Origin: Perkinsus olseni
Lineage: Eukaryota
Assembly (NCBI GenBank): GCA_013115125.1
Contig: JABANN010000108.1
Location: forward strand, 1-64,000
DNA length: 64,000 bases
Direction: 5' to 3'
In this document: positions 23,317-57,887 of the stretch, piece after piece
Layout of the letters: each line of letters starts with the position of its first letter
Position numbering within the stretch: the stretch's first letter is position 1
Translations under genes and position numbers: made by a program
Notes under the pieces: model-generated
What the model was told of the DNA's origin: nothing
Database searches by the model: none
What the model saw: only the letters and a program-made list of their open reading frames with translations

Positions 23317-23738
23317 ACTGTAATAATAATAATAATATTCGTCATACCACACTTCTCCTACATCGTACCAACTATCCAGGTACATTCTTCTACTATAGAA
23401 AAGAGGCGGAACCTGTCATGATGATGACCATCATCAACTACTAACACTGTTGGCAGATGTTACTACCACTGCTACTGCTGCTGCTGCTGCTGATGCTCTC
23501 ATTACGTAGTTGCCTGTTTATTAATAGAACGGTAGTAGTGGTAGGCTGATGATGTCACTGCGGATGTTGATAGCATCATCATTACTCTTCATCACAATCA
23601 CTATGTTGTTTCTATCTGACCCGTCCTATCTCCCGCTATACTAGTATTCTTGTGTTCTCTTCACAACGGGGCGGAGCGAAGCAATAATTGTTTGCAGTTT
23701 TTGTATCCCAGAAGTAGCAATCATCATTCGCGAGTAGT

Positions 23739-25654
23739 ATGAAGTCGTTCAGTGAGCTGTTATACTATCTCGAATCCCTGGATTGGGTATTAGAGGGAAT
23801 AGTCGTCCCCTTAGGGGCCTTCCTAGTGCGGTTCTTCGTCCAATTCCCTTTGGAAACTTTTTGGCCGCTCTACCAGAGGTAATAATAAAGCTGAGGGCCG
23901 TGGCAGTTATCCGTTGATATACATATCCTGTTCCTCGTCACTACTGCGTCGCCCTCGTCAAACCGGCAGCGGTCGTAATGAGATATATGAAGATTCCACG
24001 GTCGATGAGTGTCATCGACAGAGGCTTAAGATTCCTCCGTGAAACGCTATTCTGGAACTGTCTGGTCTTACCGACTGCACGATTGATATTATGTCTAATA
24101 CGGATTGCTTTGGATGAATTCGCGCCATTCCTGATGAAGTAATAGACCGAACTCGTCGCCGCCGTCATCGTTCTGAAATCATCATTGTCGATCTTTACTT
24201 CTCTCAGGCACGTCCACCTCCCAGGTCGTTTCGGCGGCTGTCTTGGAGGACTGGAAGCTCAGGATGGAGCGGTACCACCCGCCAAGGATTGCATCGTTAC
24301 CTTCAAGGAGTACCGTTACGGTCCAGAGAACCGTCAAACAATCGACGTTATTCGCCCTGTTGACACCTCTTCGACTGATGCCACACCTCTTCTGTAGGAT
24401 GGATGCTAACGAGCGGTCGGGAATAGGTGGCTTTCAGGTACATCCACGGCGGTGGGTTCGTTGCTGCCAATTCTGCCGTGATGGTGCATAGCGTGACGGC
24501 CTTTGCGAGAGCACCCTATTATTTACCAGTCTACTCAGTAGACTATCCCCTCAGTCCTGAGCACCCCTACCCGTGTCCTTTGATCTCCGTAGGTTACCAT
24601 GGGTAATGATGGGAGGGTTGGCATCGTCGTGCTCTTGCTGTCAGGTGATGGCAGCGCTGCGCTACATGAAGGAGCAACTAGGTGGGCGGCTTGCTTTCAT
24701 CATTTTCGTCAATCGCTTATTCTGTGTTAATTCGATCTCAATTTTTCTCTCAACTCTCTGTAATATTTTGGAACCCGCCTTCTGCAGGTTTCCATTCGGT
24801 CTGCATCCTCGGTGACAGTGCGGGCGCCTCATTGGCGTTGATGGCCACCCTGTGGGCGACTGAAGGATTCGGTGAGCCGTCTCCTACCACGTCATACCAC
24901 ACCATCCGCATCTTTACAGATATGCCTGAGCTGTCTTGCGGCTGTTCCTACCCTCCCCTACACCCTTCACAGCTGCCAAACATTCTCGGCGTCGCTTCTG
25001 CGTACTGATAATACATGACCACCGGCAGCAGCAGGCTGACGATGATGATCTCCTCAACTTCAGTTACGGCGTACTGGACTCCCATTCATGGCATCACGAC
25101 CACTGCGGACGTCAAAAATCGATATCCCCCACTGAGCAGGCCGTCGCCGAGTTCGGCTTGGAAGCTTCCATGAGGATGTAATGCACGGAGAGAGTGGATT
25201 CCGGGAGCCCTCGGGTTAGGTACACCAAGAATCGGCACTTAAAGCAGGGACAGCCGACACAATTTCTAGATGTCCTCAAACAGATGCCCCCCCGAGCTGC
25301 TTGGGGTCTGCCTCCCATCAACCTTCAATGCGGTGGAAAAGATATCCTCGTCAACAGCACGAAGGCTACCTATGGATACCTCAGGAAGCGAGGAGCTAGG
25401 GTCACTATGCAGGTTGGTATCCAAGCTCGATCCACGGACATCACAAAATTTCCCAGGTCTATCCTCAATCCCGACACGCGTTCGTAGGCTTACCACCGGC
25501 CTGGGTGTGTAACAAAGATTCTCGTCACGCCACCAGAGAGATCGCCGACTTCCTGTACGACCTCTGCCACGCCCCCTCGGAGCCCAAGAGCCCCTCTTCT
25601 ACTATCAGTCGTTCGGCTGGCTCAACCACTGCCGCCGATTCCTCATCATCGTGA
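23739..25654 (+). CDS. Alpha/beta hydrolase, HSL/abhydrolase_3 family esterase
   Basis: 'YIHGGGFV', 'VDYPLSPEHPYP', nucleophile 'GDSAGA', 'CGGKDILV' and 'THAFVG' across introns. Confidence 0.85.
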
Positions 25655-26189
25655 CAATAGTAGTGACATGCTCACTGTTATGTATCCTATTATCATTCCA
25701 CCAGCAGCAGCAGTATTCGCAAACACAATTCTCGTATTGATAATTTCGGTAACAGATGGTATCGTCTGTTCTGGGCTGCTACCTTTCAGCCTCCTACCGA
25801 TCATCATCATCGCTGGACCAGCGATTCCCCTTCACTGCTGCTGCCGCTACTACTGCTGTATCATGCATCTCCCTGATACTGTCCTAGAGTAAAAGAAAAT
25901 TAGTATATTTTCTCAGCGGAGCGAAGCAGCAACTGCCGCTGTTCACAATTGATATTTTACGAGTAGTGCGGTGTATGGGGAAGCACATCAACCGAAGCGT
26001 TGCGTTCAGTCGGAAGTTGAAGAATGCAGCCTCCGGGGATCGAACCTCCGGCTTTCTATCGTCATCAGCGCTCGCCATTTCGATCGATTTCTCTGAACAC
26101 ATCGCCCTGACCTGCCCCACGAGAATGGTAGTGTAACCAACGTGGTGTGTAGGAGTATCTCTTGTTGTCGTTTTCCCTTCCCGTCATTG

Positions 26190-30625: not shown

Positions 30626-30827
30626 GCTGAATCACCGCCCAAAGATTCCTTCGGGACGATAAGAATGCGCTGGGGCGAGCGATATCAAGGTATATCATAA
30701 AAATGCCGCATGTGGGTATCGAACCCGGGCCCTTCTCCGCCACACCTCGAACTGACAACGCAACGTCGGTGTGGGTAATTGAAACGTACCAAGTGGTATA
30801 AGGTGGCATCTTAGGTTGATGACGGTG

Positions 30828-32437
30828 TCATTCATGACAACGCATCCTCTTATTCTTATTAATAAGCAACTGTGGTGAAGGTGGCGTCACCCCGGCCTGC
30901 TGCTGTTGTTGTTGCCGTAGTAGTATGCCCAAGATGGGCTCCCCATTATTGCCGTCAGCATAACGATGCCTTTTTTGTATCCTGCCAGCATCAACAAAAG
31001 ATCCTCGCTCTCGGCAGTGGCTGACGAGATCCCCCCAGACCTTCGATGATCGTCCGAGGCTCTCAGCGTTACCGACTATCCACAAGGAGTACTTGGCTCG
31101 AGTCAAGGACACGTTCAAGCGTCGGTAGTCGGCAACAAAACCGATACCGCCATCACGACTACTCCTCACGCAGGACATGATGATGATATCTTTCTCCTGA
31201 CCTTGATAGGCGTCCACGGTGTCCACCTCCGCTCCGCTAGATACTATTCTTTTTATCAGAGAGGCTTGCTGACGGTAAGGCGTAACAACACCGATCGACA
31301 TGTTTCTGGTGGCCATAGCCTCCACCATCTTGCCCACTAGACCAGCCTCCTCAGTGTTCACCAGCGACGTCCCCCCTCGGCCCCGCTCCTCAGCCCCCAG
31401 TCGAGAGTCAAGGAACAGCAGTGGCCGCAGAGGCTGCCCCAAGGAGGGCGGAAAGCGGCAGCTGTCAGCGGTCCTCAGGCGGCCATCGTAGAACTCTCTC
31501 GAGGCGAAGTCAGCAATCTCCGGGAGCATACGGTATTGTTCGTCGAGCAAGTGGGCCTGCCAGCCGGCGTCCACAAGACGTTCGAATAGAGACCTTTCAT
31601 ACCGCAAGGCCTTGGCCTCCATCGACACCACCGTAGCCGGCAGCTGCTGAGGGTCGCCGACCAACACCAGACGCTTAACTCCACGGAGCTTTAGTGGTAT
31701 CAAAGCTGATGGCTCGATAGCCTGGCACGCCTCGTCGATGATACAAGTAGCGTCACGCGCCACGAAATTAGTAGTGATAGTGTTGCTGCCAAACGAGCTG
31801 AGCGTGCCCAGCACCACCCTAGCCCTGCCTAGGAGCTGCTTGCAGGCCTCGTCACGCGACCGGGAGAGGGCCCGCGAGGAGCGCTGCTTCAACTTATCCA
31901 ACTGTTCCTTCAACTCCTTCTTCTGGGCTATCAGTCTGCCCCGATCAGCCCTCACTTCGGGGTCGTTATCGCCAGCTAGCTCCTTGATGGTCTCGTCCAA
32001 CTTTCGCACCTCCGCCAGAATGCCCTCCCTCTGTCCCCTATGCTGCCCCCTCAGCTCCGACTCCTTCTCTCGGCCGCCCGTCTTGGCCAACTCCTCCAGC
32101 GATATCGCCTTCACCTCTTCCCGAGTAATCCTTCTGTAGGACCCAACGCGGAGGACGCTATGGACCCCCGGCGGCTCCTCACCAGGCGGCAGTAACGTCC
32201 CCAGAATCCTCGACGTCAACTCATCAACAGCAGCATTCGACGGCGCACAGATCACCAACTTGCTCGTCGTCTCCAACAGCGTCTTCACCATCGCCACAAT
32301 AGTTTTGGTCTTGCCCGTCCCCGGTGGTCCCTGCACCAGGGTGATGGGTGATGACACATCAGCAGCGCTGGCCACAGCCCTAGCCTGGGCTTGGTTCAAG
32401 TCGGTTGAAGCGCCCACACCAGCATTGGAAGCATTGC

Positions 32438-32512
<75 letters not shown>

Positions 32513-35500
32513 GGCGCCTCAGCACAGGGACTGATGGCGTGATGAGGAGGTCTCGTAGCGGCGATAGGGTGCTGTTGGACAGGACCCAGTCCAGGGCCTC
32601 GCACTCTCGTTCGGAGGTGGTAGTACTGCCGAGGACGACGGCTTGGCAGAAGGACCCGACAGACCAAGGCGATTGGGGGGATAGACCGTAGGGTGCCTGA
32701 TGACCACAAAAGCTGCCACAATCTTGCTAATTCTCGAAGTGTTATACGCATTAGCGCGCGCCCTGCACCAACCTCGTCCGATTGGAATGGTATCTTAATC
32801 CTCGCACTGCGGAACTTGCCGACCTCCTCCTCCCCCGGTTGTTGACTGGCTGCATCCTCCTTGAATACCACTCCAAACGCAACTGTAATGTCCACTAGGC
32901 CGCCGACGGTCGTCAAGGGAGACCCCGCCAGCAGTGCGTCGTAGAGCGGTGGTGATGAGCCGTCGTCTCGCGGATGGATGAGCAGCACCTGCGATGTGTC
33001 ACCACTACTCCAGCATCGCTCCCAATAAGGCGTACCAAATCGCCCTGACTGAGAGTTTCCACCCTCCGCTCGGATCTACTACTACTTTCACGACGATCGT
33101 CGCCGGGCTGGTCTAGCTGGGACTTCACTGTCAACCTGTTGGAGCCTCCTGGGGTGGATGCTGGGGGGCACTCGACACTCGCCTACGTGGCCCACTTCCC
33201 CTTACGACTCGACCTGCTGATCTTGACAGCGGGTATGCCCCAGTACAGACTGCTGCCCTCGGTGCTCGACAGGGAGCGACGAAGAGCTTCTGCTGACTCA
33301 TACAACAACGCTGGACGGAACCATTTAACGTAACTGGACATTATAACAGCCTTTCATCCCAAAGGTCCCCGATTTGATCCCTCCTACTCGTCGGCCGATG
33401 TGAAGCTTTCGTTTCCCCTATCGCCCCTCTGCATCCCCATTCGACCCAGCATAGCGGACGTATCCTGTCGGGTCGAGAATGGATCTCGACACAGGAGTAT
33501 CTTATGCAAGTCGTCGACCGCGTGCTCCCTCTCAACCCTAAAGATACGTCGTCATCCAGGCCCTACACGCACGCCCCCTACTCGATAGCGTTGCCATTCT
33601 TCCGTTCATGCTGCTGCGCCGCCGAGCCGCGAGTCAACTTGATTTTAGTTCTCTCCATCTTCATCCTCCTGGGTTTGCTCCGACTCTCGAACATCGGCGG
33701 CGGCTTCCCTGTTGCCTCAGCCTTGGCCACTGCAGCCGCGCCCGTCGGGATCGCAAAGCCGCTGGTCGCCCTCTTCGGACTAGGCGCCAACTTAGCTACT
33801 GGTCGAGGCTTCCGTGGAGGGGGCGGCGGAGGAGCAGTGACTTTATGCTTCGCTCCGTCGACCGGGGCAGTTTTTTTCGCCGCCACTTGATCCCACATAT
33901 TAGCGAACGCTCTCTCCACTTTAGAGTTCCGAGAAGTCGAATGCCATGCTGACGACGACGTGGCCGCAGCCTTGGCCGACGCCGCGGGCTTCAGGAAACC
34001 GTCTAGTTTGGACTGGACTAGTTTACCGGTACCTTCCCCTCGATTGTTGGTGAAGGAGCGGTATGACGGAGCTGCACGCATCCGGTCGAGAGCTCCGGCG
34101 ATGGACTTCAACGCCCCGTTGCTGCTATCAGTAGACCTGCTCGCCGGCTTCGCCTCCTGAGCAACACCCATCATCGCTCACCCAAAGCGCCGGCCCACCT
34201 ACCTCGGCCGCGGGAGGAGGAGGTGCCTCGGCTGCAGGCTTCTCCTCCTCCTCATCGCTACTACTGCTGCTTGATACCGATAGTACCCCTACCGACCGAC
34301 TAGGGGTGTAAGCGTCCCAGTCGTCCGGTGATGATGGTAAGGAAGCTGAGAACCAACAGCAACAGAAGATGCACAGTCGGGCAGAGGAACAGAGGCTGTC
34401 GCCCCTTCACGAGCGTATCACAAGAAGTCCCCACGACTCAGCAGAGTTGAACAACTCCACTTTCCAATGAAGAACGCTGCCACCAACACTATGATTTACC
34501 CTTCCGACTGGCCTGTCCGAGGATGAGATTAACAAGATGCCCCTTTCTACTACGTAAGGAAGCTGTTGGGTCCTCATCACTCGGGTGTACGAACGAGGGA
34601 GGCTGCGGCGCAGACTTCTTCGGTTTGGGTTTGGGTGCCGCTGCCGGCGGAGGGGGCCGGTCGCCGTGGATCCGCTTCTCAAGAGCGGACAAAGCCGCAG
34701 TCATCGCGGTGAATCCAGCAGCCGTCTGGAAGATCACTGTCACGCGCCACGAAATTCCCCTTCAGTCATACCTGGGCATTGGTAGCTGGGGCTGCCGCTG
34801 TTCCCTGAGCAGACCAGTCCCCTGGAACGTTCTCGAATACCCAATCCGAGAGGGCGGTGTGAAGGGCAGCGACATCGAAGAGGTTGTACGACAGAGACGC
34901 CTTCGGGGACTCAGTCAACTGAGGAACCACACTGCTGTAGCGGGCAGAGGGAGGGAGGGGCCCTACCGTATCGACCAGGGCCTTGACAAAGCGGAGGGGG
35001 CCGGGAAGGGAGGCTGAGGGGCCGCCAGAAGTGCCACGACGCTCCAACACCTCCACGGCCAGCGTACCGATGGATCGGAGGAAGACCTGAAGACGATGCT
35101 GTTGATGGTCGGGGACTAGGAGCTCATCATCATCATCATGATCATGATCACCTTGAGCACAGGGATGGAGGCCATGAACTGCAGGGCGGCGGGGAGGGCA
35201 CAGCTGGAGAGGAGGTCCCAGGCGTAGTCGGACACCTAGGAGGAGGAGGAACCATACCACCCACTCCAGCGTGTAGGGGCCCTACGTTCTCCACACCCAC
35301 CGCTAGCATCTGTTGTTGGCACCACAACGCTAGGCCATCCACAGCCCTGGGGTCCGATGACAGTACCTGCCATCCGTACCATCGTCTTTTATCGAACCCC
35401 AGCCAATACTACCTCCCTCAGGCCAGCCAACTTGTCCGTGTTCTCCTCCACCGCCCTACTCGATTCCCTCCTCAACCTCCTGTCGACGATCTCAGTGAGT

Positions 35501-36763: not shown

Positions 36764-36809
36764 CTTCTACATGACTACACCAACGTGATGGTAGCGGATA
36801 ATAAGAGGC

Positions 36810-42975: not shown

Positions 42976-43402
42976 GGGGTAACAACAAAGGAGCCAGCAA
43001 CTACCTAGGGTCAACCTAAGATACCATCCCTCGACCAAATCCTGTACGTGGATCCACGCCATCACGCTTCGACGGTTCGATAATATTCAACAGCGACAAC
43101 TCATAGCCTTACTAGATCACTACTGATGGGACTCAAAAACGCATCACGGACGAGTGGACCACCACCCGACCGGTAGAAGGACCTTTCCGCCGCCGGAGCA
43201 CCTCGCTAAGGATAAATCGATCACAATGGCGAGCGAGATTTACGCCAACTCCGACATGATTAGCAGCCGACCATGCGGTGGAGCCATGAAGACGAAGCGA
43301 CGCAAAACTAGCGGGTTGGGGCAGTGGGAAAGGAATTTGCGGGGCTACGTGTTTGGATCGTAACCTATTGCGTATCTTCCCATAGTCGACCTTGGATATT
43401 CT

Positions 43403-46400
43403 ATGATTCGTCGGTCATCATTATTCCTTCTTGTGTTGCTGCTCGGCTTGCTCTTCTGTGCCGATGCTGAGGAAGAGGAGTACTCATACCGTCGACGTAA
43501 CCGTAGTATCTTTCAACCTCATCATTGCCGCGCTTAACCTAAAGATACTTTCAGGCGGTAAACGAGCTCGGCGCATGGAGCTTATGCGTCACAGCTTCGT
43601 CAGCCCACTTACATACTCCAACACTCTTGGTAATACCTATTCTGTGAAATGCCAGCATGATGAAAAGATACGTCAGGTGATTGGTTCATGAATGGCGCCA
43701 CAGTAGCCACCGATGATCATGTTATTCTTACCCCGAGCATAGCCCAAAGATACGGCATATTTATGCATACCATGCCGATCGATACCAATGATTTTGAAAT
43801 CCTTTTTGATGTCTCGGTAAGAGGGCATCTTAGGTTGACCCGTGCAAGATACACAATAGGTTGGATTGGAGGCATAATCCACATCTCAGGTATCCGATGG
43901 TCCTTCGGGTAGTCGTGACTCTGGCTTTGCTTTGTGGTAATAAGTCATCACGGAGGGTCTCTCTGATGGCATATGAGTATCTTAGGTTCACCACGATGAA
44001 TTACACAGCCGAGTTCTCGAAGGTGCGGGATGAGCTGCAGAAGGGGGATAATAAGAAGGACTGGAAGAATGCTTTCAAGGCTCTCGATTATTCATTACTC
44101 GGACAAAAGGTAGGTTGAACCTAGGAAGATACGAATGGGGTTCGAGTGAGGTATCTTGTCGGCAACAAGCGTCGGCGAATCTTCATCTCTCATAGTCCCC
44201 TCGCTTCAACATAAGATACGTTGTCGTTTCTCAGTCCCGTTTCGATGGTTTTGGCGTCGTCTTCACCCCCAAAGGGGCATCCGGAGATGAACACACTGGT
44301 AGGTGATGATGATCGAAGCGTCTTGGTATGTTGTTACTTGACCGAGTTGAGCTCCGGTGTTGGACTTAGTACTCACGCACTATTCCTGTCTCGTCAATTA
44401 CTCGGCCAGTAGTGTCTCAAACGAATGGATCATTTTCCTGTATATGGAATTCATAGTGAAGGCCAGCGGTGGCTGGCAGTACTAGCCGTTCTCACCCTAG
44501 CGTATGTAGCCCTTTTTGTCTGTATTGAGCACGATCGGACAGCGGTGGACTACTCCACGGTCCATCACGAACCATCCCTCCTAAAGATGCTGTCGCCTTG
44601 ATTCGCTTTTTTTGCGCAATGAATACTAAACGGCGATCTGTGACGGGTTTTCGGGGAAGCATCGGACGTGCTGTTGTGGTTGGGAGGAAAAATGACCCGA
44701 AATGGCTATTTTACGTTCCTGTTTTTAGTAATCCGGATGTCGATAGATTGAAACTCGGTGTTGTGGTATGCTGATGGTTGGTGGTCATCTCTTCAGTTTC
44801 GATCATCACCAATCGGAATGATAGGGCCTTGTCATTCGATATGGACGTGCCTGATAGAGAGTCTTCAGCGAGGGTCAACTTGCACGGCATGGGTGTTCCT
44901 TTTCGGGTAGTATCTTGGCTCGATGCATGCAAGATTCAAAACTGGTCACCTTTAGATTGGTATTCGTGTTCGTCCTGATCTCATTATGGTCCGATATCGT
45001 GATGCGAATAGACGTTGGCAGGAGCTCACCGCCAAGAGGGGTGTCACCGTGCCGTAAGATTACTATCGCCATAGATAGTCCATACCACTCCTCCCCCAAA
45101 TCATACCCAGGTCCAGCGGCTACATCGGGTTCACATCGTGGAGCGGCGACTCTCTGCCTACCGAGAAGGTGTCCGTCGTCGACATGCACGTGTAAGTCAT
45201 TCGACAGTCCCCTCCACTCAGCAGCCCTGACCTCGTCGGGATAAGATTCCCTTCATCGTTAATGCGTAAAATATCGGTCATGGAGATGGTCATGCGCAAG
45301 CTCGAGCGGGCAGCGTCAGGAATGTCTTTGCCATATGAAAATTATACATTTTTAATTTCATTTGAATAGTTCAGTAAATTATCTATGGCAGAATATTTTA
45401 TTTTTGATCATCTTTTATCGCTGTATTCCTCGTTGTTATCTGTGATACTATCACATTATCTCAGCTACAACATGGACATGAGGCGGCCTGGGGAGACTCT
45501 GATGCAGGAAGTCGTCGACGAGCTCTCCGATGGTGGGAAGATTGATTGGAAAGAAGTATCGCCGGGACCAGGGGGTGTATGCTCAGCTCCATCGCATTTG
45601 GTACCTTGCCTTACTGGTAGTATTATAGCAAGGCCCGAGGGCGGTCGAGTGAATGGTCCTAGACTTGTGTATCATTTATTGCACTCTGGTCGATTGGTCT
45701 CACTTTTGTCGGTGTGGTTGGACCCTTCATGTCTCTACTAAGATGGAGACTGGAAATGCGATATGAAGCTCCGTTAATTCTGAGCTCAGAATAAAAAATA
45801 AACTTAACCTCAGTGGAACTAACAACGTGACAGAATCATCATCTGTTATGTTCTTGTATCCTTATTGTAGCGTTTACTCTATTCAGTTGCTGACGTCTGA
45901 TATCGGGGAGGACACCTTTCAGCAGACACTAACCCTCCAGAAGATCACGGATATGCTGGTCAACTACATTCAAACCACCCAACCGGAGATGGCCAAGATG
46001 CACTCCCAACTGGGTAGGGAGGGAGCTTCGTAGCAGACTATGTCTAGCCTACGTCAGTGGCCGCCACTGGACAGATTTTCCCGCGCGCCAGGAAATTATG
46101 GAATTTTTTGACGGCGGCGTTGTTGTTCAGGTAAGATAACTCATCATATCGTGGATTTGGAGTCTCGAATGAAGCAATTGAGGAAGGAGATCAAAGCAAC
46201 CAGTGAAGGTATCTTTACGCACAGCGAGGGTTTTTTCCTCCGTTTAGATGGGAATCTTTCAGGTTCGGGTGGATTATCAACTCTGAAGAACCAAATGGTG
46301 GGCTTGAGAGAAATGCTGACGAGGGAGTCGGGCGATCATAAGGTGAGTTTTGTCAGCCGTCTGTGAAAAAAGCGCGCGCCCGAAAAAGAAATTTGCCGAG

Positions 46401-46767
46401 GTTCGGTCGGATTGTCGGTGGAGTTGTGATGATTTCAGGATCGCGTGGAGAAGGTCAGGGAACAGCTGACTATTGCTGATGGGAGTGAAGGACGGTAATA
46501 TATAGCGGAGCGAAGCGTTTCATGTTGCGCAATTTTGTGATTATTCCTCAGCTCGATGATAGGCGACGATTTGGAAGACTCCATCAGCAGCTCACATAGT
46601 TTGGCGAACAAGCTTTTTATGCTCTGTAAGATTGGCGACGAATCTTGCAATCTTATGAAATCTTGCGTTTTCTCAACATTTCCTCGACAGGTATCATAGT
46701 GGTTGTGGTCGGCGGTTTATACGTTTGGCGGCAACTTCAAGTTGTGGAGAAAAAGCATCTTTTCTGA
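43403..46767 (+). CDS. ERGIC-53/LMAN1-like L-type lectin (signal peptide, lectin domain, coiled coil, TM, KKxx-type tail)
   Basis: Signal 'MIRRSSLFLLVLLLGLLFCA', then 'HSFVSPL', 'HVILTPSIAQRYG..PIDTNDFEILF', 'FDGFGVVF', 'GYIGFTSWSG', a coiled coil and C-terminal 'IIVVVVGGLYVWRQLQVVEKKHLF*'. Confidence 0.7.
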
Positions 46768-47016
46768 TCTCGGCAACGGGGATGAGGAGTATCTTTTTTA
46801 GACGAGGTCAAAAACAGAGGCGGAGCGAAGCGTAATTTTTTGCTGCCGTGGCTGAACGAATTTTGTGCCGCGTGACGGCAGTAGCCACTGTACTTACATT
46901 GGTCTTTGCGTTTCGTAACACTCAGCTCGTGGTGTTGGACTGGAGGGAGCGTATCTTTGATTCTTCCGGCTGCGCTCGGAGGAGTAGCTTTTGAAGATTT
47001 GTATTCCCTATCTGAG

Positions 47017-48415
47017 ATGGCATCGCTTTCTACCCTAACCCCTCGTCACCTTTCCTGCCACGCTCCGTCGGTCACTCGGACCTCGGACGACCCGTCGGCT
47101 GCCTCGGGCCAATCGGCCGGGACCTCTCCTAAGATGACAGTGAGAGACGGCTGGCCTGCGGTGGGACTGGGAAAATCTTCGCTGTGCGCAACGGAAGATA
47201 CTGGAAGTCGATTTAATGAGGAATCTTTGGCGTTGTTGGAGGATGAGGACGAAGATTTGGTTATCGGCGGAGCGAAGCAGAGAATTGACGCGAAGGTCAT
47301 CTGCATGGAGGAGGGCGTTGCGGAAAAAATTGAAGTTGTCGGTTGCAGTGTTGTGAGTGTCAAAGTTCGAGACTTCTGTATCAGCAGAAACGAGATGGTA
47401 GTAATAATTACGACGGAGCGAAGCGAGTTTTATATTTGGTTTTTGTGTTTTCTCATCAGGTTGATTACGTACTGGAGCTCACTCTCAATGGTATCTACCA
47501 TCGCGCGCCCAATGATTCCTTCGTCCGAATCCACACTCCGCCGTCTCCTTGCTTCACCGGTCTACCGCTCACCCCCTCCGCAGTAGCAGCCCTGCGTGCA
47601 ACCGCTTCTGCGGAGGCAGGGGTTGCTGTTGAAGATGCACAGGAATCTTCGGGGAACGGTTTCTCGCCGACGGTCGGCCCCACTGCTGCCCCTCTTCGGT
47701 ATCAAGTCCTGCTGGAGGGGCCTCCTGACCCATCGGCCGAATTCGAGGTTATAAAAACTGATCTTGCATCGCTCCGCTAAGGAATCTTGTCAGGTACTGA
47801 AGTTCACTACATCCTCCGTGGTACGTCTCGATGTTGATCGGTATCATGATGTCTCGCCCGAGGACTACCATCGGCTCACCTTCGAGGAGCCTCGGTTAGT
47901 ATTCGAGGCCCTCGCTCACGAGCTCTTCCCGCAAGTCAACAGCAGCTCTCCTACTAACTACCACCACTGAGCGTCTTCTCGTCCCCATCGACCTTCCCGA
48001 GTCATCACAATTTTACCGCCCCGCGGTGGCCACTGTTGCCGCGTGAGGAGGAGGAGGGGGTCGAGGACTTGAAAAAGTCGCTTTTCCTGCTGACGAGCTG
48101 CTGGTGTAATAGTTGCGTCGATATGTACCATTACTTCCCCAACTCTCGTCCGCTCGTCCAACGTCGAGGAGGCGGTCATCTCGCCCCTGCTGCTGCTGTT
48201 GTCTGGTGGGCATGTATATTTCGTGGCGCGCGGTCGGGATGCGAGGTATCTTGGTAACAGTTTGACGGTTGGAATTATCGACTAATATTTAATTGTATTT
48301 TTTATGATGGTTACTCGAATCTGCTGAAGTAGTTGAGGAATGCCAAGAAGGAGCAAGATTGCAAGTATTTCCAGACTTCCGCTATGATGATGATCATCAG
48401 CCCCCCCCGTTTTGA
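47017..48415 (+). CDS. Hypothetical multi-exon protein
   Basis: Open exons bounded by GT-AG introns. No domain recognised. Confidence 0.45.
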
Positions 48416-48647
48416 TGGTACAACCGTGCGCTCTATGAGAACGTGGATGCGCCCGCAGTGTGCTGCCGAAACACCGTAGTGAGAGCCGTGTCGCTCACAG
48501 CAATATTTAAAAACTGTATCATAATCTTAGCGGAGCGAAGCAGGAGGACGAAAGATTCTCTTGGAATCTTCGTCTCCCATTCTCGTATGTGAGGAATCGT
48601 TGACGGCCTCAAGTGGCCGACATTTTGGGATGATTGTCATCCTCTCC

Positions 48648-50527
48648 ATGATACGAGATGGGTCGCGTTTGAGGACAGGGAAGATACTTCCTGTCCGCAC
48701 AGCGAAGATTTTTTCTCCCGGATATGAGAGGCAACAGGAAGGGTCGATGGGACAGCATGCGGTTCTACCGGCTGGGTCACATGAAGCATGGCAAGGAGAA
48801 GCAGGGATTTCGGAGGATAGGGCCGAGCTTTCGGTAGGTTGTTGTTAGCGGAGCGAAGCAGTAGGGATTTTTTTGTAGCGGACGAGAATAGTGGGTTGGG
48901 TATGGCCATGATGGCCTGAGAGAGTATCTTCGCTTTTGAATCATCCTTGAGTGAACCTTTGATGCTTCGGCAAGTGCTGATTGTATAGAATAGAGATTCC
49001 ACAATCGGAGGGTTGACAAATTTATGGAGGCGCTTAGCGGAGCGAAGCGATGAAGATTACAAGTGCCTTCGAGAGTGCGGGACTTGAGAACCCAGGATTC
49101 ATCAATCCCCGGGTGGAACGCGTCGTCTCCTTGTTGGTGTTCTTATTATCGTTGGTTGACAAGCGAAGAATCCTACGTCTGTGGACGCGCCGAAAGGTTG
49201 CATGTCTTCAAGGGTTCTTCCGCTGCTGCATACGAGACAGTCCCGAGGGTTGGGTGGATGTAGGGCAGTGAATCAGGGCCACATCCCCGGTCCAGGGAGA
49301 GGGAGGGTGATCGGAGTATGTCCCTGGAGCAGACATGCGTGCGTTTGGGCGTACGCGTGCACACGCGGGCGTCGAGGCTCAGTCGAGGCCGCTTAAGTGA
49401 AGAAGCGAGAAGACTTAGAATACTCTTCGCGTGTGTTAACTGGTGCTCTGCCTCGTTTTGGAGGTGATTTTGGAACTTTGGCTACGCTCCGCTCCACGCC
49501 AGGCACGGGAGAGTATCTTTTTGGGTTAGGTACTGGCATGAGATGAAGGATTGGTTGGATAAGCTGATTATCTATCAAAGGATTGAAGGGCCGTTGAACA
49601 GGATGAAAGAAGTTCAACAATACGCGGAGGAGATAGTATTCCATGCTAGACGGAGTAAGAATGGTACCCTTGTTGACCTATTTTGTATCATGCGTGCTCG
49701 AGTTAATGGATATCTTTTCAGATACGGCTTATTCTTCGCAGATTGTCGAGTCAATGTTGAGATCTGCCGAGGCAAGGCAAATCTTGTACGAATATTTGGT
49801 TCCGAGATACAAGTAGGCGGAGCGAAGCGTTTTTTGTTTAAAAGAACAGTTTCCAGTGAGATGTATGAATTGCCATATCGATCCCCGTGGCGTGCTTTGT
49901 CCTTCCTTAGAGTTGAACCTGCGGTCTTCGGATTAGTAGTCACAGTTTTTACGGGAAGAGTAACTGCTCCTGCTCCTCAGAGATCGGCCATACTTCGTGA
50001 CGCGGATGTTGAATCCATTTTATTTGCGATATTATGACGCACAGCAGAGAGGTAGACGGCGGGCGTTTGATCGCTGGTCTGTTCGTTTGGTGGTGGTGGT
50101 GGTGGTGGTGGTCGTCGTCCTGTGCATTGCTGGACCTCGACGCTGCGAGCTTCCATCGCGTATCTTGGGTTCTCTATAAGTCGACGTGAGCAAGGCAAAG
50201 AGCCTCCCATCCCGGATTTTGGTCTTTCTACCTATAGTTCGCTGCATCTTATTCGATGGTATCTTCATGTGCACGCGTGCAGTAAGATACCCTTGTATAG
50301 GTTATTTGGAGTTCATCGATTGGCCTGGCGAGTTCCGGGCGGCCAATCCTGTAGGAGAGGGGAGGAAGAAGCGGGTCGCCATAGAATTCGATGCCTCTAG
50401 GAAAGGTCGACGAAGACATCTAGTGGTGAGTGGTATCTTTATAATCGATCGCGTGATCGATATCTGCTCGTATACTAAGCGCCGCCTACACGCGGAGTTC
50501 TCCTCGCTACCATTGCGACAGTTGTAG
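48648..50527 (+). CDS. MRPL17: Mitochondrial ribosomal protein L17 (bL17m)-like
   Basis: 'MKHGK..FRR', 'LDKLIIYQRIEGPLNRMKEVQQYAEEIVFHAR', 'ARQILYEYLVPRY', 'LRDAD..YLEFIDWPGE' follow the bL17 pattern. Confidence 0.7.
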
Positions 50528-50906
50528 CTACTACAAAATTGAATTCAAACACGCAGGATTTTTCAATTCGAAATGAAGATTACTGAGTCTACCAGATCCT
50601 ACGTGTCCCCATCTGGAATTTGACTCTGAAATGTATCAACGTAGCAGCTCGAGTAGTGAACGCAGGCGAGGGGACCCCGGCCTACTGCTCGGTTAGCGAC
50701 GCTTGTGTATGCTTTAAAGTATGTTTATCCACGTTTCGTGAAGTGTTCGTCCTGCTTTTTCATGCACATATCTTGTCTGCGTACGGCTTAACACTATGGA
50801 AGGTATCATTCGTTACCGCTCGCCTTTGTAATTCAACTCCGGGAGGCCTGCTTAGATATTCTCGCGCGCCATTAAATTCAGGAAGCCCGTGTCCTGGGTA
50901 TCCTCA

Positions 50907-52303
50907 ATGAAGCTGACCCAAGATTCCTCACGACCGAAGCCTATGAGAAATACGTCCGCGCAACGCGGGAGGGGCAAACTGCCTTGGAGGCGACACCGTC
51001 AGAGGGAGAATGATCAGGCATGTTGATGTTGCTATTCATGATGATGATGGTTTCTGTTACGGACTTTTTTCGTTTGTACCGTGCTCAACCTCAGGATACG
51101 TTTGTGTTGCCTTTTGTCTCCCTTGGTGGTGATTGTGTCCTTCCGGCGTGACTGCTCATCTAGCTGTTCATCCCTTACTAATACACCTATTAAATGCAAA
51201 CAACAAACAACAACAGTCCCCAAATCAATCCCTCATCTCCCCCGACGGTCCAAGGTGTGGCCTACAAACCAAAGAGAGTGTAACCCTTCTGTATCTTGCA
51301 AGGGCGACTCGAAGATATCTTTCCCTTCAGACTGGGTCTTCATCTTGCTGACGACCGTCTGGCGTTCCGAGTGAGGCTGACTTTCTACCTGTCTCTTCTG
51401 CCCATCATCTTTTGTATCGCCTTCGCTATTGTGGTGTGGTTCGTATCGGTACCTGTGTATATTTGGTAAGGAATGGAGGCGAAGCGAAGCGTTTCATGTT
51501 AACCAATTTTGGTTGTAGGTACTATGCTTTGTTGGTTATTACAGTGGTGTCCCCGACCACTTTGTACTATTCCTACGCTAATAATAGTCATTCGTTCATG
51601 GGTCTCTTTGCTTTTCTTAATGGTGCCCTAGCGGTATGCCAAGTTCTATCAGTATGGCAGGTAATGGTCTAATACTTGACCTCATTCGTATCTTGCTAGG
51701 TCGACCTAAAGATATTTCTCAGGTGTTAGCCTATGTTAACAACTGTGAGACGTTCGTTGATGAGTGCAAAGTGTCAGGGCTGAGGGTAGTCCCGGCCGTC
51801 ACCGATCCGACGTAAGCACCAATTTCGTGGCGCGTGACGCTTTTGCTGGTCTTGTTTAATTTTAAAAGATACGCCTGCTCGTTCTACTCGGTGATGGACT
51901 ATTCGACGTTCCAACACTGGGCGGATAGTCAGACGACCACTTTTGTTATGTACCTGTCGTTCTTCGTGCCGGTGGTGGTGTTCCATTTGGTAATTGGGGA
52001 AGGAGTGGTATGAAATGGTCATAAATGCGACTATTTGTCAGATGCTGTTGGCCTTGTCGTTGATGTGGTATTCTAAGCTGAGAAAGGGTCTCAGAATTTC
52101 TACCACAGGACCAGCCGGCGGTGTGGCTGCCACCGTAGGATTTGGGAGAGGAGTGGTATGATAAGCACGTATAAACACGTGTGCGTTGGCAGGTTATAAC
52201 TAGCGGGTATGTCGCTAGAGGCACTGAGGCCGATGATGCGGATAAGGTCGCCGTTGGTGTTCCCGTTTCCAGTCCGAAAATCAAAGAAGAAGATAAAATA
52301 TGA
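50907..52303 (+). CDS. Multi-pass membrane protein, tandem paralog A
   Basis: Hydrophobic exons 'YYALLVITVVSPTTLYY..ALAVCQVLSVWQ|..ECKV..VPAVTDP' and tail 'VARGTEADDADKVAVGVPV'. Confidence 0.6.
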
Positions 52304-53006
52304 AGGGTTTTCCGCACAGGGAAGATGTTCTCCACTAGTTGTGACTGAATTTTTCAGTCGTCCTGATTTGTGGTATCTTTCCCTGTGGCATTCGGGGCGA
52401 TCTCCGAAGATGATTTCCGCTCCTTTGTATGCAAAGAGATGGGTTTTCGCGACTGGCCTCGGGAGAGGAGTTAGTTGACGAGGTCATATCTGAATCGATT
52501 GTCTGATCGATTTATATCTCCTGTTCTTTAGTGCAGTTAGTGGTCAATAGTGATCGATTCTGATTTTGTAATTTTCGACATTGATGGTATCGGAGAATCC
52601 TGACTGCGGTGGAAGACCGGTAGTAACCCGTCTCTGGATGACTCTTCTGTTGTGTTCATCATTATGGTATGGCAGGGCCAGGTGAGGGTAGATGGTATCT
52701 TAGGTTGAAGGAGTTTAAGATACTTAAAGCGTATCTTTCTGTAGTATAACCTCCATGCCACCCTCTGACACAGAAGATACTCCATCGCCTCCTTCAACGG
52801 TTCTCGGAGTAAGATTCCATCCTCGTATTGTGTAAGTCCCTTCATGCAGGTTAAATAATTTCGTGGCGCGCGGGAAATACTATTCTTTGCATATAGCGAC
52901 TCCTCGTCTTGTAGCAGGGTATCGCTCGCTAGGTGCTAATCATATCTTTCCCTTTGCGTTGCCTATCGGACGGCTTTCGTTAGCACAGCGGCGTGAGTTC
53001 GATTGA

Positions 53007-54753
53007 ATGGTGGGGCTCTCTAGAGGGGTATCTAAGGTTGAAGCTAGGAGTTCATGGTGTTGCGGTTTGGTCAGGTTTGGCCTTCCTATCGCCAAGCCTG
53101 AGTTGGCTCCGATAATTCGAACAATATTCCTGCTGGCCCTGGCCCCGATACTGTTAGTAGCAGTATTTGCAGCTGTCACTCTGACCTTGGGAACACCTGT
53201 ATTCTTCTGGTAATAGAAATGAGGGTTGACCTTATTTGTATCTTGCACGAGTCTAGCTAGGATATTTCAGTGGCACTGGTTTTGTGTCCCTGTATACCGT
53301 GAATGCGAAACGGTTGATCGATTTGCCAATCTTACTCTACATGCAACTCAGGTATTATGTTGTCTTTGTTACCACCATTCTAGCTCCTGCTGCCCTCTAC
53401 TACGGTGTACAGTATAATAAGAGCGGTGCCTTAGAGCTCTATGCTGTTTGTAATGTGGCATTGGCAGTACTACAAGCTGTTGGGATATGGCAGGTCATAT
53501 TCGGCTGCGAATCGGGGGAAATGTGGTATCAACCTGTTGTTGGTCCTTCTGGTTTCGATGAAATTATAATTGAACCGATTCATTGAAAGCGCATTCACCC
53601 ATGGTGACATTTATTACGTATCCGCATCGGTCGCGCTCTCGAAGGCTCCGGGAGGGGATGTCCGAATGATTTCCCTAGCGGAGCGAAGTTTTTTTAGATT
53701 GTGAGATTCCTGGACCAGAGCGAGTTGTTCCTTCAGCAGTGTGCTGTTAAGAACGGTCTCATCGTGCCGGCGGTTGCCAACCCCGAGTAACTAACGATAA
53801 TATAAATCGATCATCTGATCGATTTGCCCATTTTTCAGTTTCGACTGTCAGAGTTACCATTCGTATGAATATTGGAAGAGTAGCAACACCGTGGCCAATG
53901 CAGACCGGACCTTGGTCATCTACAGCGTTCTCATGGGGTTAGCGATCATAATACACTCGGTAATACTCCTCCCCGTGCAGACGTTCTCCCTCGCTCTTGA
54001 GGCGAGCAAGGTGGTGGTGGTGTTCTCCTGGCGATCACACATCCACGTTCTTCGGCGCCGCTCACCGGCAGGGCCGTCGTTGTGGTGGTGGAATACCGCA
54101 TTTCACCAGAATGAGCGATTCTGGAGGTGTAGAAGTACCCGAAGTTGATTCGTGTCATTCAGGCACTGATGGCCCTGTCTATATTTTTATACAAGAAGTT
54201 GGCTGGCTCCAGGACGTTGGTGCTTGCCCCGACCTTCTCAGAGGTGGTACGCGGTGGGCGTTACCTGTCCATCCAATGACTACATGAGTGTGTTACAGTA
54301 ACACTGTCATGGCTATAGTGGCTCACGGAGTTGGAGAGAATGCGATATTTGGTCTGCGAATATGATATTTAATGGTTGAGCGAACTGGGGGGAAACTTGG
54401 CATACATATTTCTGAAACACTTCTTAATGTGCCTTTGAAAGATTGGCATCTAACACGCTTATATATCTGAATTTCAACATCGAAACTGGGCGAGAAGTAG
54501 TGGAAAGCCGTTTATTGATGAGAGTCATCGGCATAAGCATTGTCATTCGGTTCAGGGTCAGATGCGCCCCGTAGACGCCGCGGTCGCGGAGGGTACTGAA
54601 GCTAGCGATTCGGCAAAGGTCACCACGGGAGTTCCGGTTAAACGATCAGAATCTTCGCTGTGCGAAGTCGATATGGAAGCAGGAGAAGTAGCGCTCCCAT
54701 CGGCATCGCGGGATGGGGCCTCTGCAAACAGTAGCATCGCAGTTGCTGTGTGA
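53007..54753 (+). CDS. Multi-pass membrane protein, tandem paralog B
   Basis: 'YYVVFVTTILAPAALYY..ALAVLQAVGIWQ|..QCAV..VPAVANP' and tail 'VAEGTEASDSAKVTTGVPV'. Confidence 0.65.
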
Positions 54754-55238
54754 GGAACGTCAAGAAGTCTTAAGATTTCAAGATTATACTTCGCGCGGTT
54801 CTGCGCTGATATTATCTTCCTTATAATCAATTGTTGTTGTTAATCGTCGTTGTTGTTGTTGTTGTTCTATAATGGCCAGTAGTGGCCGATCCGTAGTGAC
54901 CATTCCCGACACCAACCGCTGCCCCTCTGCTGGTGACCTTTCCTTCTCTACTGTAGATAAAAGTGAGTTCATTAGGAGCATAAATGTATGGCAACAAAAA
55001 AGAAGTGGTATAATTTCGGCGGAGCGAAGCTCTTGTTGTTTGTTTGTTGTTTTCTTTGCTGCTCTCTGATGGAGACTTCTTCCTTCGTTCCTACTCTCGC
55101 GAATAACGTTGTTGTGATAGAGTTGCTCGACATTTCTCTTTATGCTGTACACATGGGGTTGAGTCTATTAATTGCGTGTAGCAGGTGGAAGGCATGTTCT
55201 GTGTGGATTCCGGTAGGGTTCAGTACTTGTTCTTAACA

Positions 55239-55309
55239 GCATCATTGGTCTAGTGGTAGAATACAACGTTGCCATCGTTGTGACCCGAGTTCGATTCTCG
55301 GATGATGCA
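55239..55309 (+). tRNA. tRNA-Gly (GCC)
   Basis: Full cloverleaf: GCATCAT/ATGATGC acceptor, anticodon arm CAACG-TTGCCAT-CGTTG, T arm CCGAG-TTCGATT-CTCGG, followed by TTTT. Confidence 0.97.
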
Positions 55310-55348
55310 GCTTTTCTTCCTCACTATTTAGCATCGCCACATCAGTCG

Positions 55349-57040
55349 ATGAATACTGCCGAATACCCCCTATCGCTGTCAGGCATTCTTTCTCTCTTTC
55401 TGACACCCATGTTCGGAGGCGCTCCTGAAAAGTCGCATAACACGAAGTCCTCCTCCCAGCTTGTTGAAGTGTAGGAGGAATCCTCGCCCGTGAGAAGGAT
55501 GCTGCCGATTATTTTCTTCTTCAGCGTCGGCATCGATATGGTGGAAAGAAGCTACGCTCGCCGAGTTGGTGGCTTCATCTTCCTCACTTATCTGCCTCCA
55601 TTCATAAACCTCACCTTCATGGTCGTGGCGGTTGTATTGTCGATCCCGTTGACCAACTTGTAAGCGAAAGGGCGTCGGTTCGGACCAGGGAAGCGGTACT
55701 TTAGGTCTGATTTCCTGACGCTTGTGAGCCCCTTTCTGCCACTATTGGCCTACTACGGATTCGTCCTCGTCTCACCCAAGATGATGCTCACCTACGGAGC
55801 TCTGGTATGGATCATGATCGGCCTTCGTGCGCTGGCTTTGGCACAGGTAAAGATGAGATCGATCATCAGGGCATGCGCTACTCTCCTCCCACAGATGTTT
55901 CACTATGTATCTCTGGTCCAGCGACTCGTAGCATCCTGCACAATCGACGGCGCTGGGAAGGTGATCGATGCCGTGAGCCATCCCGTGTAGGTTGGGGAAG
56001 CCCGGCAGCGAATAATGCGGTAGATTGTACGTATAGTTGATCACTAGTGGTAGTGCAAAAATCTCTCCTTTCATTCCGATTGATAGAAAAACAGTTTGGC
56101 GTGCTTCGACGGCTCAAAATACAGGAAACGCGGGAGGAAGAGTATTCAAATGGTGGCCTATTATGATGCTGTTGACAATGGCGTGTGCTCCGCCAGTGAC
56201 TTTGGTTGTTATTGTTGTTGTTGAGGGATGGTTTTGGTCGAAGGTACGACTGTGGCAAGATATCATCCAGCGTGTGGGAGGTCGCAGCCGATCATCATGC
56301 ACACAATAGTGGAAATATTTATGCTATTTATCTCACATGCTTCTTCATGGAGGTGGCAGTCTATTTGGTAAGGGGTTGTAGGACGGCTGCCTGTCCTGGG
56401 AGAGAGAAGAATCACCCAAGTTCAAATCCCACGGATGTCATTTTCAATCGATTTACGGGCAGCAGTTGATAAGTTGCTCGAGTACACTTTCCCATCATCC
56501 CCGTGGCTAGAACTGATAGATGATATCCGCATTCCGATTCCTGTTCTTAATGGAACCGGATATCTCCGTACGCCCTCGCAAAGTTACTATGACGTGGGAC
56601 AGCCGCCTCGCTGGCTCCTTCACAGTTGTACATCAAACATGGTGTTCAAGTTCCGTAATAGAAATCCGGTTTTTTACTGCCGTTGATGAGGCGTACTTGC
56701 TATATCCCTTCGCGAGAGTCTCCTCGACATCCGCCCATCTTCTGCTGTTATTGATATCGGCAGTGGTGTGAGCATAGGGTGGCTAAGCGGTCGAGCCGTC
56801 ACAACCCGGAAGGCTTTAGTGTCCTTCTCAGGTCCTCGGTGTATTGGCCGTGAGGTTTTCCATGTTGACGAGGAGAGGCAAAGTTGTGAAGAAATCAGCG
56901 GAAGTCGATGCATCGGGGGTAGTAGTGGTGTGGGTGCAAGAACTAATGTCGTTTTACCGAAGACCGGTGCTGTTTCTACTAATGGGAACGGTTCCGGTGT
57001 ATCGGAGAAGGAGAGTTTTCCCGTTCAAGATTCCGGGTGA
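55349..57040 (+). CDS. Multi-pass membrane protein, tandem paralog C (more divergent)
   Basis: 'FLPLLAYYGFV..LRALALAQ|..SCTI..IDAVSHP', with introns placed as in A and B. Confidence 0.55.
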
Positions 57041-57887
57041 TATCAAAAAGCCCTGATTATTCTCATCACACATTGGGAAAATCGTCTCCGGCGTCGTGCG
57101 GGACCGACAGTCTTGCGGAGGGTGGGGGAGTGTTGGTTGGTTCTCAGATTCCCTATGACCGTCAGTTAGTGAGGATGGACACATGCGCAACTCAGTGCTC
57201 AGAGGCTGATCTGGTGCAGGTCGGAATACCAGTAGCTGAGATCAGACGTGGTGACAAGGTCGCAGATAGCCGCCCGGTATAGGGCAGTTTTTTAATGCGG
57301 GAGATCGTCGGATCTATCCCCGGGTACAGCGTCGTTTATTAAGACTCTATACATGAGCATTTTATTAGTCGAATTCATGAGTCAGTAACTCAACAGCTGT
57401 CGTTCAGACCAGTCGTTGTGGGCTGTGGTGTTGAGAATCATCAATTTAAGGAAAAGCAAGATTACTAAAGAGAGCAAGAGAGACGAGTAAAGATACCATT
57501 GCAGTTCAGGTGATGGAGCTTGGATTTGAACGAGGGACCTCTCGGTTGCTAGGTGGAAGCATTGTAGCAGTTGTCCGCTTTACCATTTGCGAGATTTCAC
57601 TCCTTGCCATGAGGTCTGTGCCGACACTGCGAGGGCATGCCTTCATTCAACTACGGTAGGAGGGCGGAGCGAAGCGAACATCTCCGCATTTAGTCGGAAA
57701 TATTTGCGCTCAGAAAATTCAGTCGAACGTCGAATGTGACGGCGAAGATCCAAAAGCGGCGGGAGGAGTTCGTAAAGGAAAAGTTTCCGTATTTTCGTGG
57801 CGCGGTGACGGAGGAGATGCCGAAGCGGGGCAGGAAGTAATGGATGGGGCATTTTGTGGCGCGTGAAGCTACTACGCGGCCTTCGAT

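Follow-up and report, generated by a model that had tools for sequence, protein, structure and literature searches.

A sense-oriented 12-nucleotide word repeated in introns and other transcribed sequence of a Perkinsus olseni contig

How does an exact word of 12 nucleotides (nt) come to be repeated many times within one short piece of a eukaryotic genome, always in the direction of transcription, and what might it do there? The question is raised by the word GCGGAGCGAAGC in the first 64,000 nt of contig JABANN010000108.1 (assembly GCA_013115125.1) of Perkinsus olseni, a stretch that was analysed as a whole and is called the window below. Perkinsus, a parasite of molluscs, combines dense short cis-introns with spliced-leader (SL) trans-splicing, and to our knowledge almost nothing is known about its promoters, processing signals and mobile elements. 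The word is real, striking and oriented, and has apparently not been described before in a Perkinsus genome.

The word, its copies and their orientation

The window contains 11 exact matches to GCGGAGCGAAGC, all of which are on the plus strand (starts at 23671, 25916, 46505, 46820, 47267, 48530, 48848, 49037, 49817, 55019 and 57664) and none on the minus strand. A preliminary description of this DNA, made from the sequence letters, had reported 11 exact plus-strand copies against a chance expectation of about 0.01; the same coordinates were recovered here, and shuffled sequences (n=100) likewise gave an expectation of 0.01 copies, with 11 copies reached in 0 of 100 shuffles. GCGGAGCGAAGC is the most over-represented 12-mer of the window, the next unrelated word having four copies. 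Nine copies with one mismatch were found versus about 0.3 expected (arithmetic, uniform model), and the matches with up to two mismatches amount to 26 versus 4.9 expected, the two-mismatch copies (six) being close to their chance level of about 4.5. The one-mismatch copies comprise the variants that had already been named, ACGGAGCGAAGC at 47413, GCGAAGCGAAGC at 51479 and GCGGAGCGAAGT at 53678 on the plus strand and a reverse variant at about 33847 in a minus-strand gene, all of which were recovered, and five further ones at 35872 and 63449 on the plus strand and at 37461, 47766 and 49481 on the minus strand.

An alignment of 14 sense copies revealed a conserved block reaching from position -1 to position +12, outside of which the information per column is at background. 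Position -1 is a purine in all 14 copies (6 A, 8 G) and the +1 position in 12 of 14, which gives the form R-12mer-R. The flanks are otherwise unrelated, as the preliminary description had stated, the copies at 46505 and 51479 being the sole exceptional pair. Its statement that T-rich sequence often follows the copies was also borne out: the mean T fraction over the next 25 nt is 0.41, a value matched by 0 of 20000 random samples from plus-strand gene blocks (P<5e-5), and confirmed introns average 31% T versus the 41% found downstream of the word. The trinucleotide GTA begins 1-21 nt upstream of nine of the 14 copies, compared with 3.7 expected (P=0.003).

Gene direction, which was inferred from open reading frames (ORFs) bearing Pfam matches, from RNA joints and from skews, is plus at 17.8-28.4 kb and 43.8-64 kb and minus at 1-17 kb and 29-43 kb. 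All 11 exact copies are sense within the plus-strand blocks, and the earlier placement of the copies in plus-strand gene blocks is supported by GT..AG joints in four of four RNA runs, by RNA ends carrying the SL and by Pfam-bearing plus-strand ORFs. The minus-strand blocks hold two one-mismatch copies in sense orientation (33847 and 37461) and one in antisense orientation (35872); antisense copies occur only in degenerate form (47766, 49481 and 35872).

In openly accessible full text, GCGGAGCGAAGC, its reverse complement and 10-11-mers of it occurred only in unrelated primer lists. The word is not mentioned in the accessible portions of PMC3101222, PMC9399869 and PMC7789003, and no description of it was found in the accessible portions of the Perkinsus, introner and spliced-leader literature. 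When metagenome contigs were scanned with TAGCGGAGCGAAGC, a 14-mer form of the word, at least 120 loci were obtained, 118 single copies and two inverted pairs among the matches listed, which look like chance matches in unrelated contigs; among these listed matches there was no density like that of the window, no clustering and no Perkinsus relative.

Position of the copies in genes and transcripts

RNA contigs of four runs were placed on positions 44001-64000, 15 of 64 joints being listed, and 17 GT..AG introns, all on the plus strand, could be compiled from the listed joints together with the contig pieces. The 14 good sense copies are distributed over RNA-confirmed GT..AG introns (three), introns supported otherwise, that is by paralogy, a contig boundary or prediction (four), 3' untranslated regions (UTRs) or intergenic sequence within same-strand arrays (six) and coding sequence (one). 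The settings given below for the copies at 23671, 25916 and 48848 were read from sequence only, and genes 1 to 4 are specified in the second list.

23671 to 23682, plus strand: exact copy between the stop of an MIF4G gene (about 23314) and ATG 23739, 15 nt before a TTGCAG acceptor-like site
25916 to 25927, plus strand: exact copy in an intron-like unit of 64 nt (25903-25966) that lies between a hydrolase-like gene and the ATG (26190) of an EF-Tu-type GTPase gene
33847 to 33858, minus strand: ACGGAGCGAAGC, one mismatch, within the minus-strand ORF 33581-34177 and so sense, read DGAKHK
46505 to 46516, plus strand: exact copy in the 57-nt intron 46495-46551 of gene 1, with the donor 10 nt upstream and the CAG acceptor 35 nt downstream
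46820 to 46831, plus strand: exact copy 53 nt past the gene 1 stop and 186 nt before the gene 2 ATG, with an RNA contig unspliced across 46691-46867
47267 to 47278, plus strand: exact copy in coding exon 1 of gene 2, in the frame ..IGGAKQR.., with RNA contigs contiguous over 46999-47396
47413 to 47424, plus strand: ACGGAGCGAAGC, one mismatch, in the 62-nt intron 47398-47459 of gene 2, 15 nt past the donor and 35 nt before the acceptor
47766 to 47777, minus strand: one-mismatch antisense copy in the RNA-confirmed 46-nt intron 47748-47793 of gene 2
48530 to 48541, plus strand: exact copy about 560 nt past the gene 2 stop (3'UTR or intergenic transcript), with RNA contigs contiguous from 47792 to 48626-48651
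48848 to 48859, plus strand: exact copy in a predicted 45-nt intron, 48834-48878 (GTAGGT..TTGTAG)
49037 to 49048, plus strand: exact copy 1 nt before ATG 49050, which opens a short first coding exon
49817 to 49828, plus strand: exact copy 4 nt after a GTAGGC donor-like site, either in a predicted 37-nt intron, 49813-49849, or in a 3'UTR right after an in-frame TAG
51479 to 51490, plus strand: GCGAAGCGAAGC, one mismatch, in the inferred 53-nt intron 51466-51518 of gene 3
53678 to 53689, plus strand: GCGGAGCGAAGT, one mismatch, in the 204-nt intron 53494-53697 of gene 4, at its 3' end and 8 nt short of the TAG acceptor
55019 to 55030, plus strand: exact copy about 270 nt past the gene 4 stop (about 54750, read by eye) and 209 nt upstream of tRNA-Gly, with RNA contigs contiguous over 54554-55143
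57664 to 57675, plus strand: exact copy in a 38-nt candidate intron, 57656-57693, 8 nt past the donor and 18 nt before TAG

The genes and acceptors to which these positions refer are as follows.

46765 to 46767, plus strand: stop codon of gene 1, lectin-like
47017 (ATG) and 47968 (stop), plus strand: gene 2
51162 to 51163 and 52744 to 52745, plus strand: SL acceptors, marked by RNA contig ends that bear the SL
51164 to 52638 and 52746 to 55143, plus strand: gene 3 and gene 4, tandem paralogous genes for multi-pass membrane proteins, each headed by an SL acceptor
55239 to 55309, plus strand: tRNA-Gly(GCC), amid protein-coding genes

The introns holding the copies at 46505 and 53678 are each delimited by an RNA joint in four of four runs (46493>46551 and 53491>53696, respectively), and that of the copy at 47413 lies between the RNA contig pieces 46999-47396 and 47459-47745 and is skipped by the P. 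olseni protein P0125. In gene 3, the intron 51466-51518 matches the position of the RNA-confirmed intron 53210-53351 in gene 4, while an RNA contig piece stops at 57654, adjoining the predicted donor of the candidate intron 57656-57693, within which GCGGAG of the word pairs with CTCCGC downstream. For the predicted intron 48834-48878, no RNA joint was seen among the 15 of 64 joints listed. Three of the 17 listed RNA-confirmed introns carry a sense copy, and one (47748-47793) carries the antisense variant. The word starts 4-15 nt past the donor in six of the seven intron copies; in short introns, the region just past the donor is the sole stretch free of splice-signal constraint.

Unspliced RNA contigs cross four copies (46820, 47267, 48530 and 55019), and the word is thus present in RNA. 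The preliminary description had placed the copies in introns and in gaps before genes, which holds in part only: the copy at 47267 is coding, and those at 46820, 48530 and 55019 lie in unspliced RNA past stop codons. The GGAKQR residues of the coding copy are also found in protein P0125, the only relative found, and both coding copies, the exact one at 47267 (plus strand) and the variant at 33847 (minus strand), share a reading frame that gives G-A-K (GGAKQ and DGAKH). The copy at 48530 is followed by an imperfect inverted repeat of 14-16 nt and the copy at 55019 by a TG/T-rich run, and the EF-Tu-type GTPase gene downstream of the copy at 25916 has a Pfam match to GTP_EFTU. A stretch of 119 nt (49032-49150), which begins 5 nt ahead of the copy at 49037 and reaches as far as a GT donor, is bordered on both sides by loose RNA contig ends in three runs, and the letters beyond 49032 and 49150 were not found in the window by exact match or short BLAST. 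Since letters from outside flank this stretch in the RNA contigs, a near-identical first exon probably exists at another locus.

Three candidate identities of the word were tried and rejected. A polyadenylation signal was considered from the distances between the word and the last RNA-covered base (36, about 110 and about 113 nt, gene 3 having no copy), which were given no weight, as RNA ends cannot be read from contigs. A branch point would be expected to have a YTRAY core, which is missing from the word, and in the intron 46495-46551 a separate candidate of the GTGAT type lies 15 nt from the acceptor, as read by eye. A U6 or other small nuclear RNA (snRNA) origin of the word and the tail that often follows it was examined by an Rfam E-value scan of 46470-46580, which gave three chance-level matches, none of them to an snRNA.

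Surrounding genes and other repeated words

Introns at the locus are short, with GT..AG ends, and its transcripts undergo SL trans-splicing. Two RNA contig ends, at 51162 and 52743, bear ..CTTGGCTCA ahead of a genomic AG, and CTTGGCTCA is the 3' part of the Perkinsus spliced leader ACCGTAGCCATCTTGGCTCAAG given in the accessible part of PMC3101222. A Mei2-like ORF of 495 amino acids is 83% identical to a P. olseni, 74% to a P. marinus and 62% to a P. chesapeaki protein, and exon 1 of one gene is identical to P. olseni FOZ60_007224 at 123 of 127 positions, the 281 amino acids of that protein equalling those of the RNA-based model. At the Rfam gathering threshold, the whole window yielded only two U3 genes and one tRNA. 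The two U3 small nucleolar RNA genes, 2212-2402 and 13060-13250, both on the minus strand, match ACEA_U3 with 118 and 114 bits and are 97.5% alike over 203 nt. RNA contigs are interrupted on both sides of tRNA-Gly(GCC) (55239-55309), as expected for a multi-copy gene, and an assembly gap of 99 N (16306-16404) is bordered by tandem repeats of about 62 nt (16151-16483, self-BLAST).

Further words are repeated in the window. The exact 12-mer TTTCGTGGCGCG has six copies, at 31756 and 34743 on the minus strand and at 48219, 51823, 52859 and 57793 on the plus strand, and one-mismatch copies at 46084 (minus) and 57852 (plus). It overlaps canonical E2F-like TTTCCCGCGC forms and is often followed by TGAC or CGGGAAA; all six exact copies are sense with the local gene block, and those at 51823 and 52859 lie about 10 nt past intron donors. 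A third exact 12-mer, ATCTTAGGTTGA (usually GGTATCTTAGGTTGA), has seven copies, at 15614, 38727 and 43011 on the minus strand and at 17889, 30808, 43827 and 52697 on the plus strand, five of which are placed near gene 5' ends. The copy at 52697 lies 35 nt before the SL acceptor 52744/5, that at 43827 precedes the ATG of gene 1 by 58 nt and that at 43011 the S30 ATG by about 35 nt; the copies at 15614 (minus) and 17889 (plus) are found at the starts of divergent gene blocks, and that at 30808 is antisense between two minus-strand genes. ATCTTAGGTTGA is a candidate promoter or start-site word. Finally, AGTATCTT/AAGATACT and GAATCTT/AAGATTC rank with the commonest 8-mers of both strands and often form inverted pairs in introns and UTRs, e.g., at 44110-44234, 46626-46690 and 48545-48580.

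Possible roles and origin of the word

It is proposed that GCGGAGCGAAGC is a selected site, predicted to be bound on the sense strand in non-coding parts of transcripts and spread by the copying of short segments, a reading that we favour but would not call probable. R-12mer-R would then form the conserved core shared by short non-coding modules, a family dispersed over Perkinsus genes, and the core would be bound sequence-specifically by a putative reader, either a protein or a guide RNA, with recognition taking place on the sense strand, i.e., on the pre-mRNA or on the non-template DNA strand. The word would sit where it is tolerated, which is just past the 5' splice site in very short introns and in the spacers and UTRs of same-strand arrays. 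New copies would arise by copying of short, intron-sized segments, the flanks of which would decay afterwards while selection retains the core. The likeliest activity would lie in pre-mRNA processing, where the word may help to define very short introns or acceptor modules, because it contains purine-rich GGAG/GAAG cores and has a GTA donor upstream and a T-rich tract with YAG downstream.

An exact word of 24 bits cannot recur by point mutation, and new copies would therefore arise by copying. In a self-BLAST of the window, only two of the 14 copies turned out to lie in alike sequence, 51479-51511 and 46505-46537 (33 nt, 88%), which belong to introns of unrelated genes; this pair is evidence of copying. 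Genes 3 and 4 share intron positions, at one of which the word is confined to gene 3 and at another to gene 4, so the word was gained or lost inside existing introns, and at these two introns (51466-51518 and 53494-53697) it did not create the intron. The sharp edges of the word and its unrelated flanks are not what a decaying repeat would leave, unless selection acts on the core or the insertion itself measures only about 13 nt. Two kinds of facts are thus in conflict: the sharp-edged exact words suggest a selected site, whereas the patchy spread, which varies between paralogs, and the 33-nt pair show copying.

The preliminary description had put forward a strand-specific cis signal for splicing or trans-splicing. 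As the word is non-random and strictly sense in transcribed sequence, a strand-specific cis signal is a fair reading; however, a general signal for trans-splicing was not seen, with no copy in the 120 nt upstream of the two mapped SL acceptors (51162/3 and 52744/5) and only the copy at 23671 near a candidate acceptor (15 nt before it). The word behaves as a pre-mRNA cis element would, being sense, on the transcript and in or near introns, with three copies in RNA-confirmed introns and four in unspliced RNA. Splicing enhancers are short and degenerate (5-8 nt) and include purine-rich elements bound by SR-type proteins as well as U-rich and other intronic enhancers near 5' splice sites. GCGGAGCGAAGC is like them in being a sense-strand element at the pre-mRNA level with GGAG/GAAG cores near the splice sites of short introns, a likeness drawn by sequence alone, and differs from them in being an invariant 12-mer with fixed C positions, which occupies a minority of introns and forms regional clusters. 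The fused branch-point/3' splice-site motif of Trichomonas and Giardia is also a conserved 12-nt word within very short protist introns, but it is located at the 3' end, includes the AG and is present in essentially every intron, whereas GCGGAGCGAAGC lies mostly near the 5' end, has no branch-point consensus and is missing from most introns. Bacterial oriented words, such as Chi, KOPS, DNA uptake sequences and REP, resemble it in being exact words of 8-12 nt that are hugely over-represented and have a polarity tied to a directional process; they belong to another domain of life, and the polarity seen here, in one window, follows transcription. For the Perkinsus word, unlike the bacterial ones, we know of no machinery.

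Several observations weigh against a selected site on the transcript. All results come from a single 64-kb window, and in its minus-strand gene blocks, about 31 kb, exact copies are absent in both orientations. A span of 3312 nt holds seven of the exact copies (P=0.0015, within plus-strand blocks) and one of 11.2 kb holds nine (P=0.02). Given this clustering and the lack of exact copies in minus-strand blocks, the word is patchy and not a feature of every gene, and a general processing signal should show a more even spread. Fourteen of the 17 confirmed introns have no sense copy, and the word is not kept between paralogous introns, so that no single copy is shown to be necessary. The ratio of exact to one-mismatch and two-mismatch copies fits, by arithmetic, a neutral family of about 5% divergence equally well, and no consistent RNA structure was found in six motif-bearing introns (fold z-scores from -1.0 to +0.9). 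Two other long words of the window are also sense-oriented, and the E2F-like one is also intronic; orientation and intron location therefore cannot separate a site at the RNA level from one at the DNA level.

The likeliest alternative is an oriented DNA binding site for a transcription or chromatin factor, e.g., a four-finger zinc-finger protein reading four triplets, which we regard as unlikely though serious. The copies at 44-58 kb would form a homotypic cluster regulating its neighbourhood, and they would lie in introns and spacers since a compact genome has little other non-coding DNA. The seven copies in 3.3 kb and nine in 11.2 kb indeed resemble homotypic site clusters, other long exact sense-oriented words of the window (TTTCGTGGCGCG and ATCTTAGGTTGA) have the appearance of DNA sites, and coding sequence tolerates one copy (47267). 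However, 11 of 11 exact copies in one orientation, even deep in genes and past stop codons, is stricter than most factor sites need, and no fixed position relative to mapped 5' ends was found, the distances from the two SL acceptors being +315, +930 and +2270 nt. Nor did the word match a known factor motif, no motif library having been searched.

Rather unlikely is a young, essentially neutral miniature mobile sequence, either an introner-like mini-intron that spreads by reverse splicing in sense orientation only or some other short insertion, antisense copies of which would be purged, as a stable hairpin on the template strand hinders transcription. Presence and absence do vary between paralogous introns, a 33-nt segment is common to introns of unrelated genes, the copies cluster locally, and nine to 11 of the 14 copies are framed by GTA, 4-15 nt, the word, a T-rich tract and YAG; the mismatch spectrum also fits a neutral divergence of about 5%. 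Copies that have diverged by only about 5% should, however, have alike flanks, and apart from one pair the flanks are unrelated up to the word, unless the unit is 12-14 nt long; we know of no mechanism for a mobile unit of just this size. The two paralog introns are at older common positions and were not created by the word, and four copies lie in stretches that RNA contigs cover unspliced. Inspection by eye, without a repeat-finding program, showed no terminal inverted repeats or target-site duplications in the aligned flanks and no common terminal repeats in the listed introns; the sole internal pair was GCGGAG/CTCCGC in 57656-57693. The suggestion that the word is the footprint of a tiny mobile element therefore stands only in part: a means of copying is required and 33 nt are common to one pair of introns, but the bias towards sense copies is left unexplained. 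Nor are the copies fragments of a larger transposon as far as self-BLAST of this window shows, in which they are not embedded in longer alike sequence.

Introners of the alveolate relative Amoebophrya, as described in the accessible part of PMC7789003, have inverted repeats of 8-20 nt at the intron ends and direct repeats of 3-5 nt at the boundaries. GCGGAGCGAAGC is like introners in being repeated inside spliceosomal introns, in its lineage-specific spread and in its presence/absence differences. Introner elements, which are also present in Micromonas and Aureococcus, are alike over their whole length, whereas here 12-13 nt are common, the flanks are unrelated and inspection by eye revealed no terminal repeats; there are also copies in unspliced UTR or intergenic RNA and in one exon, and two motif introns are at positions shared between paralogs. 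Likeness between whole introns extended no further in self-BLAST than the 33-nt pair, and neither of the two testable cases revealed a new intron position. The word most resembles introner-type intron repeats and splicing enhancers, yet it does not behave as an introner in the defining tests that were run.

Improbable, in our view, is a mini-hairpin of DNA (GCGNAGC, the loop being GGA or GAA) that would form on the non-template strand upon opening of the duplex by transcription or replication and act as a priming, pausing or R-loop-related signal. As the preliminary description had recognized, the motif consists of two overlapping GC-GNA-GC units, GCGGAGC at positions 1-7 and GCGAAGC at positions 6-12, which have the reported GGA and GAA loops, and the strand that could form the hairpin is always the non-template strand here. 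GCGNAGC is a published consensus of mini-hairpin DNA with extraordinary stability, and its natural uses, as far as the accessible part of PMC13037366 describes them, are at priming sites (phage G4 and ssiA) and in the promoters of phage N4, with GCGGAGC among the sequences used. These documented uses are all from phages and plasmids, in single-strand priming and N4 promoters, whereas the present copies are in nuclear eukaryotic genes. The two hairpins share GC and are mutually exclusive, nothing explains the invariance of both, and the invariant purines at -1 and +1 lie outside the hairpin. Nearest-neighbour folding of the 12-mer (ViennaRNA) gave no hairpin, with -0.2 kcal/mol for RNA and 0 kcal/mol for DNA; this does not refute the hairpin, because nearest-neighbour models are said in the accessible part of PMC13037366 to fail to capture the stability of the motif, the RNA forms of which are much weaker.

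About as improbable is a docking site on the pre-mRNA that pairs with a spliceosomal or other small nuclear RNA and spreads by reverse splicing of mini-introns. One candidate partner would be the free 5' end of U2, the word mimicking the U6 strand of U2/U6 helix II, to which the word with its frequent GTTT.CAT tail bears what we take to be a loose resemblance; such pairing might provide an extra sequence-specific anchor for very short introns and acceptor modules. An origin by chance, through compositional bias or as an assembly artefact can practically be dismissed, as none of 100 shuffles reaches 11 copies, the copies lie in unique flanks, public DNA runs contain a share of 0.99-1.00 of the words of the stretch, and RNA contigs of four runs cover copies with no differing letters reported.

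If the pattern holds genome-wide, a 12-mer that is invariant, occurs in sense only and reaches a density of one per 6 kb would be among the first defined cis elements of the Perkinsus group. The word would then provide a handle for finding the factor that binds it and for learning how very short introns are defined, and it may show how short sequences enter introns, which bears on intron gain.

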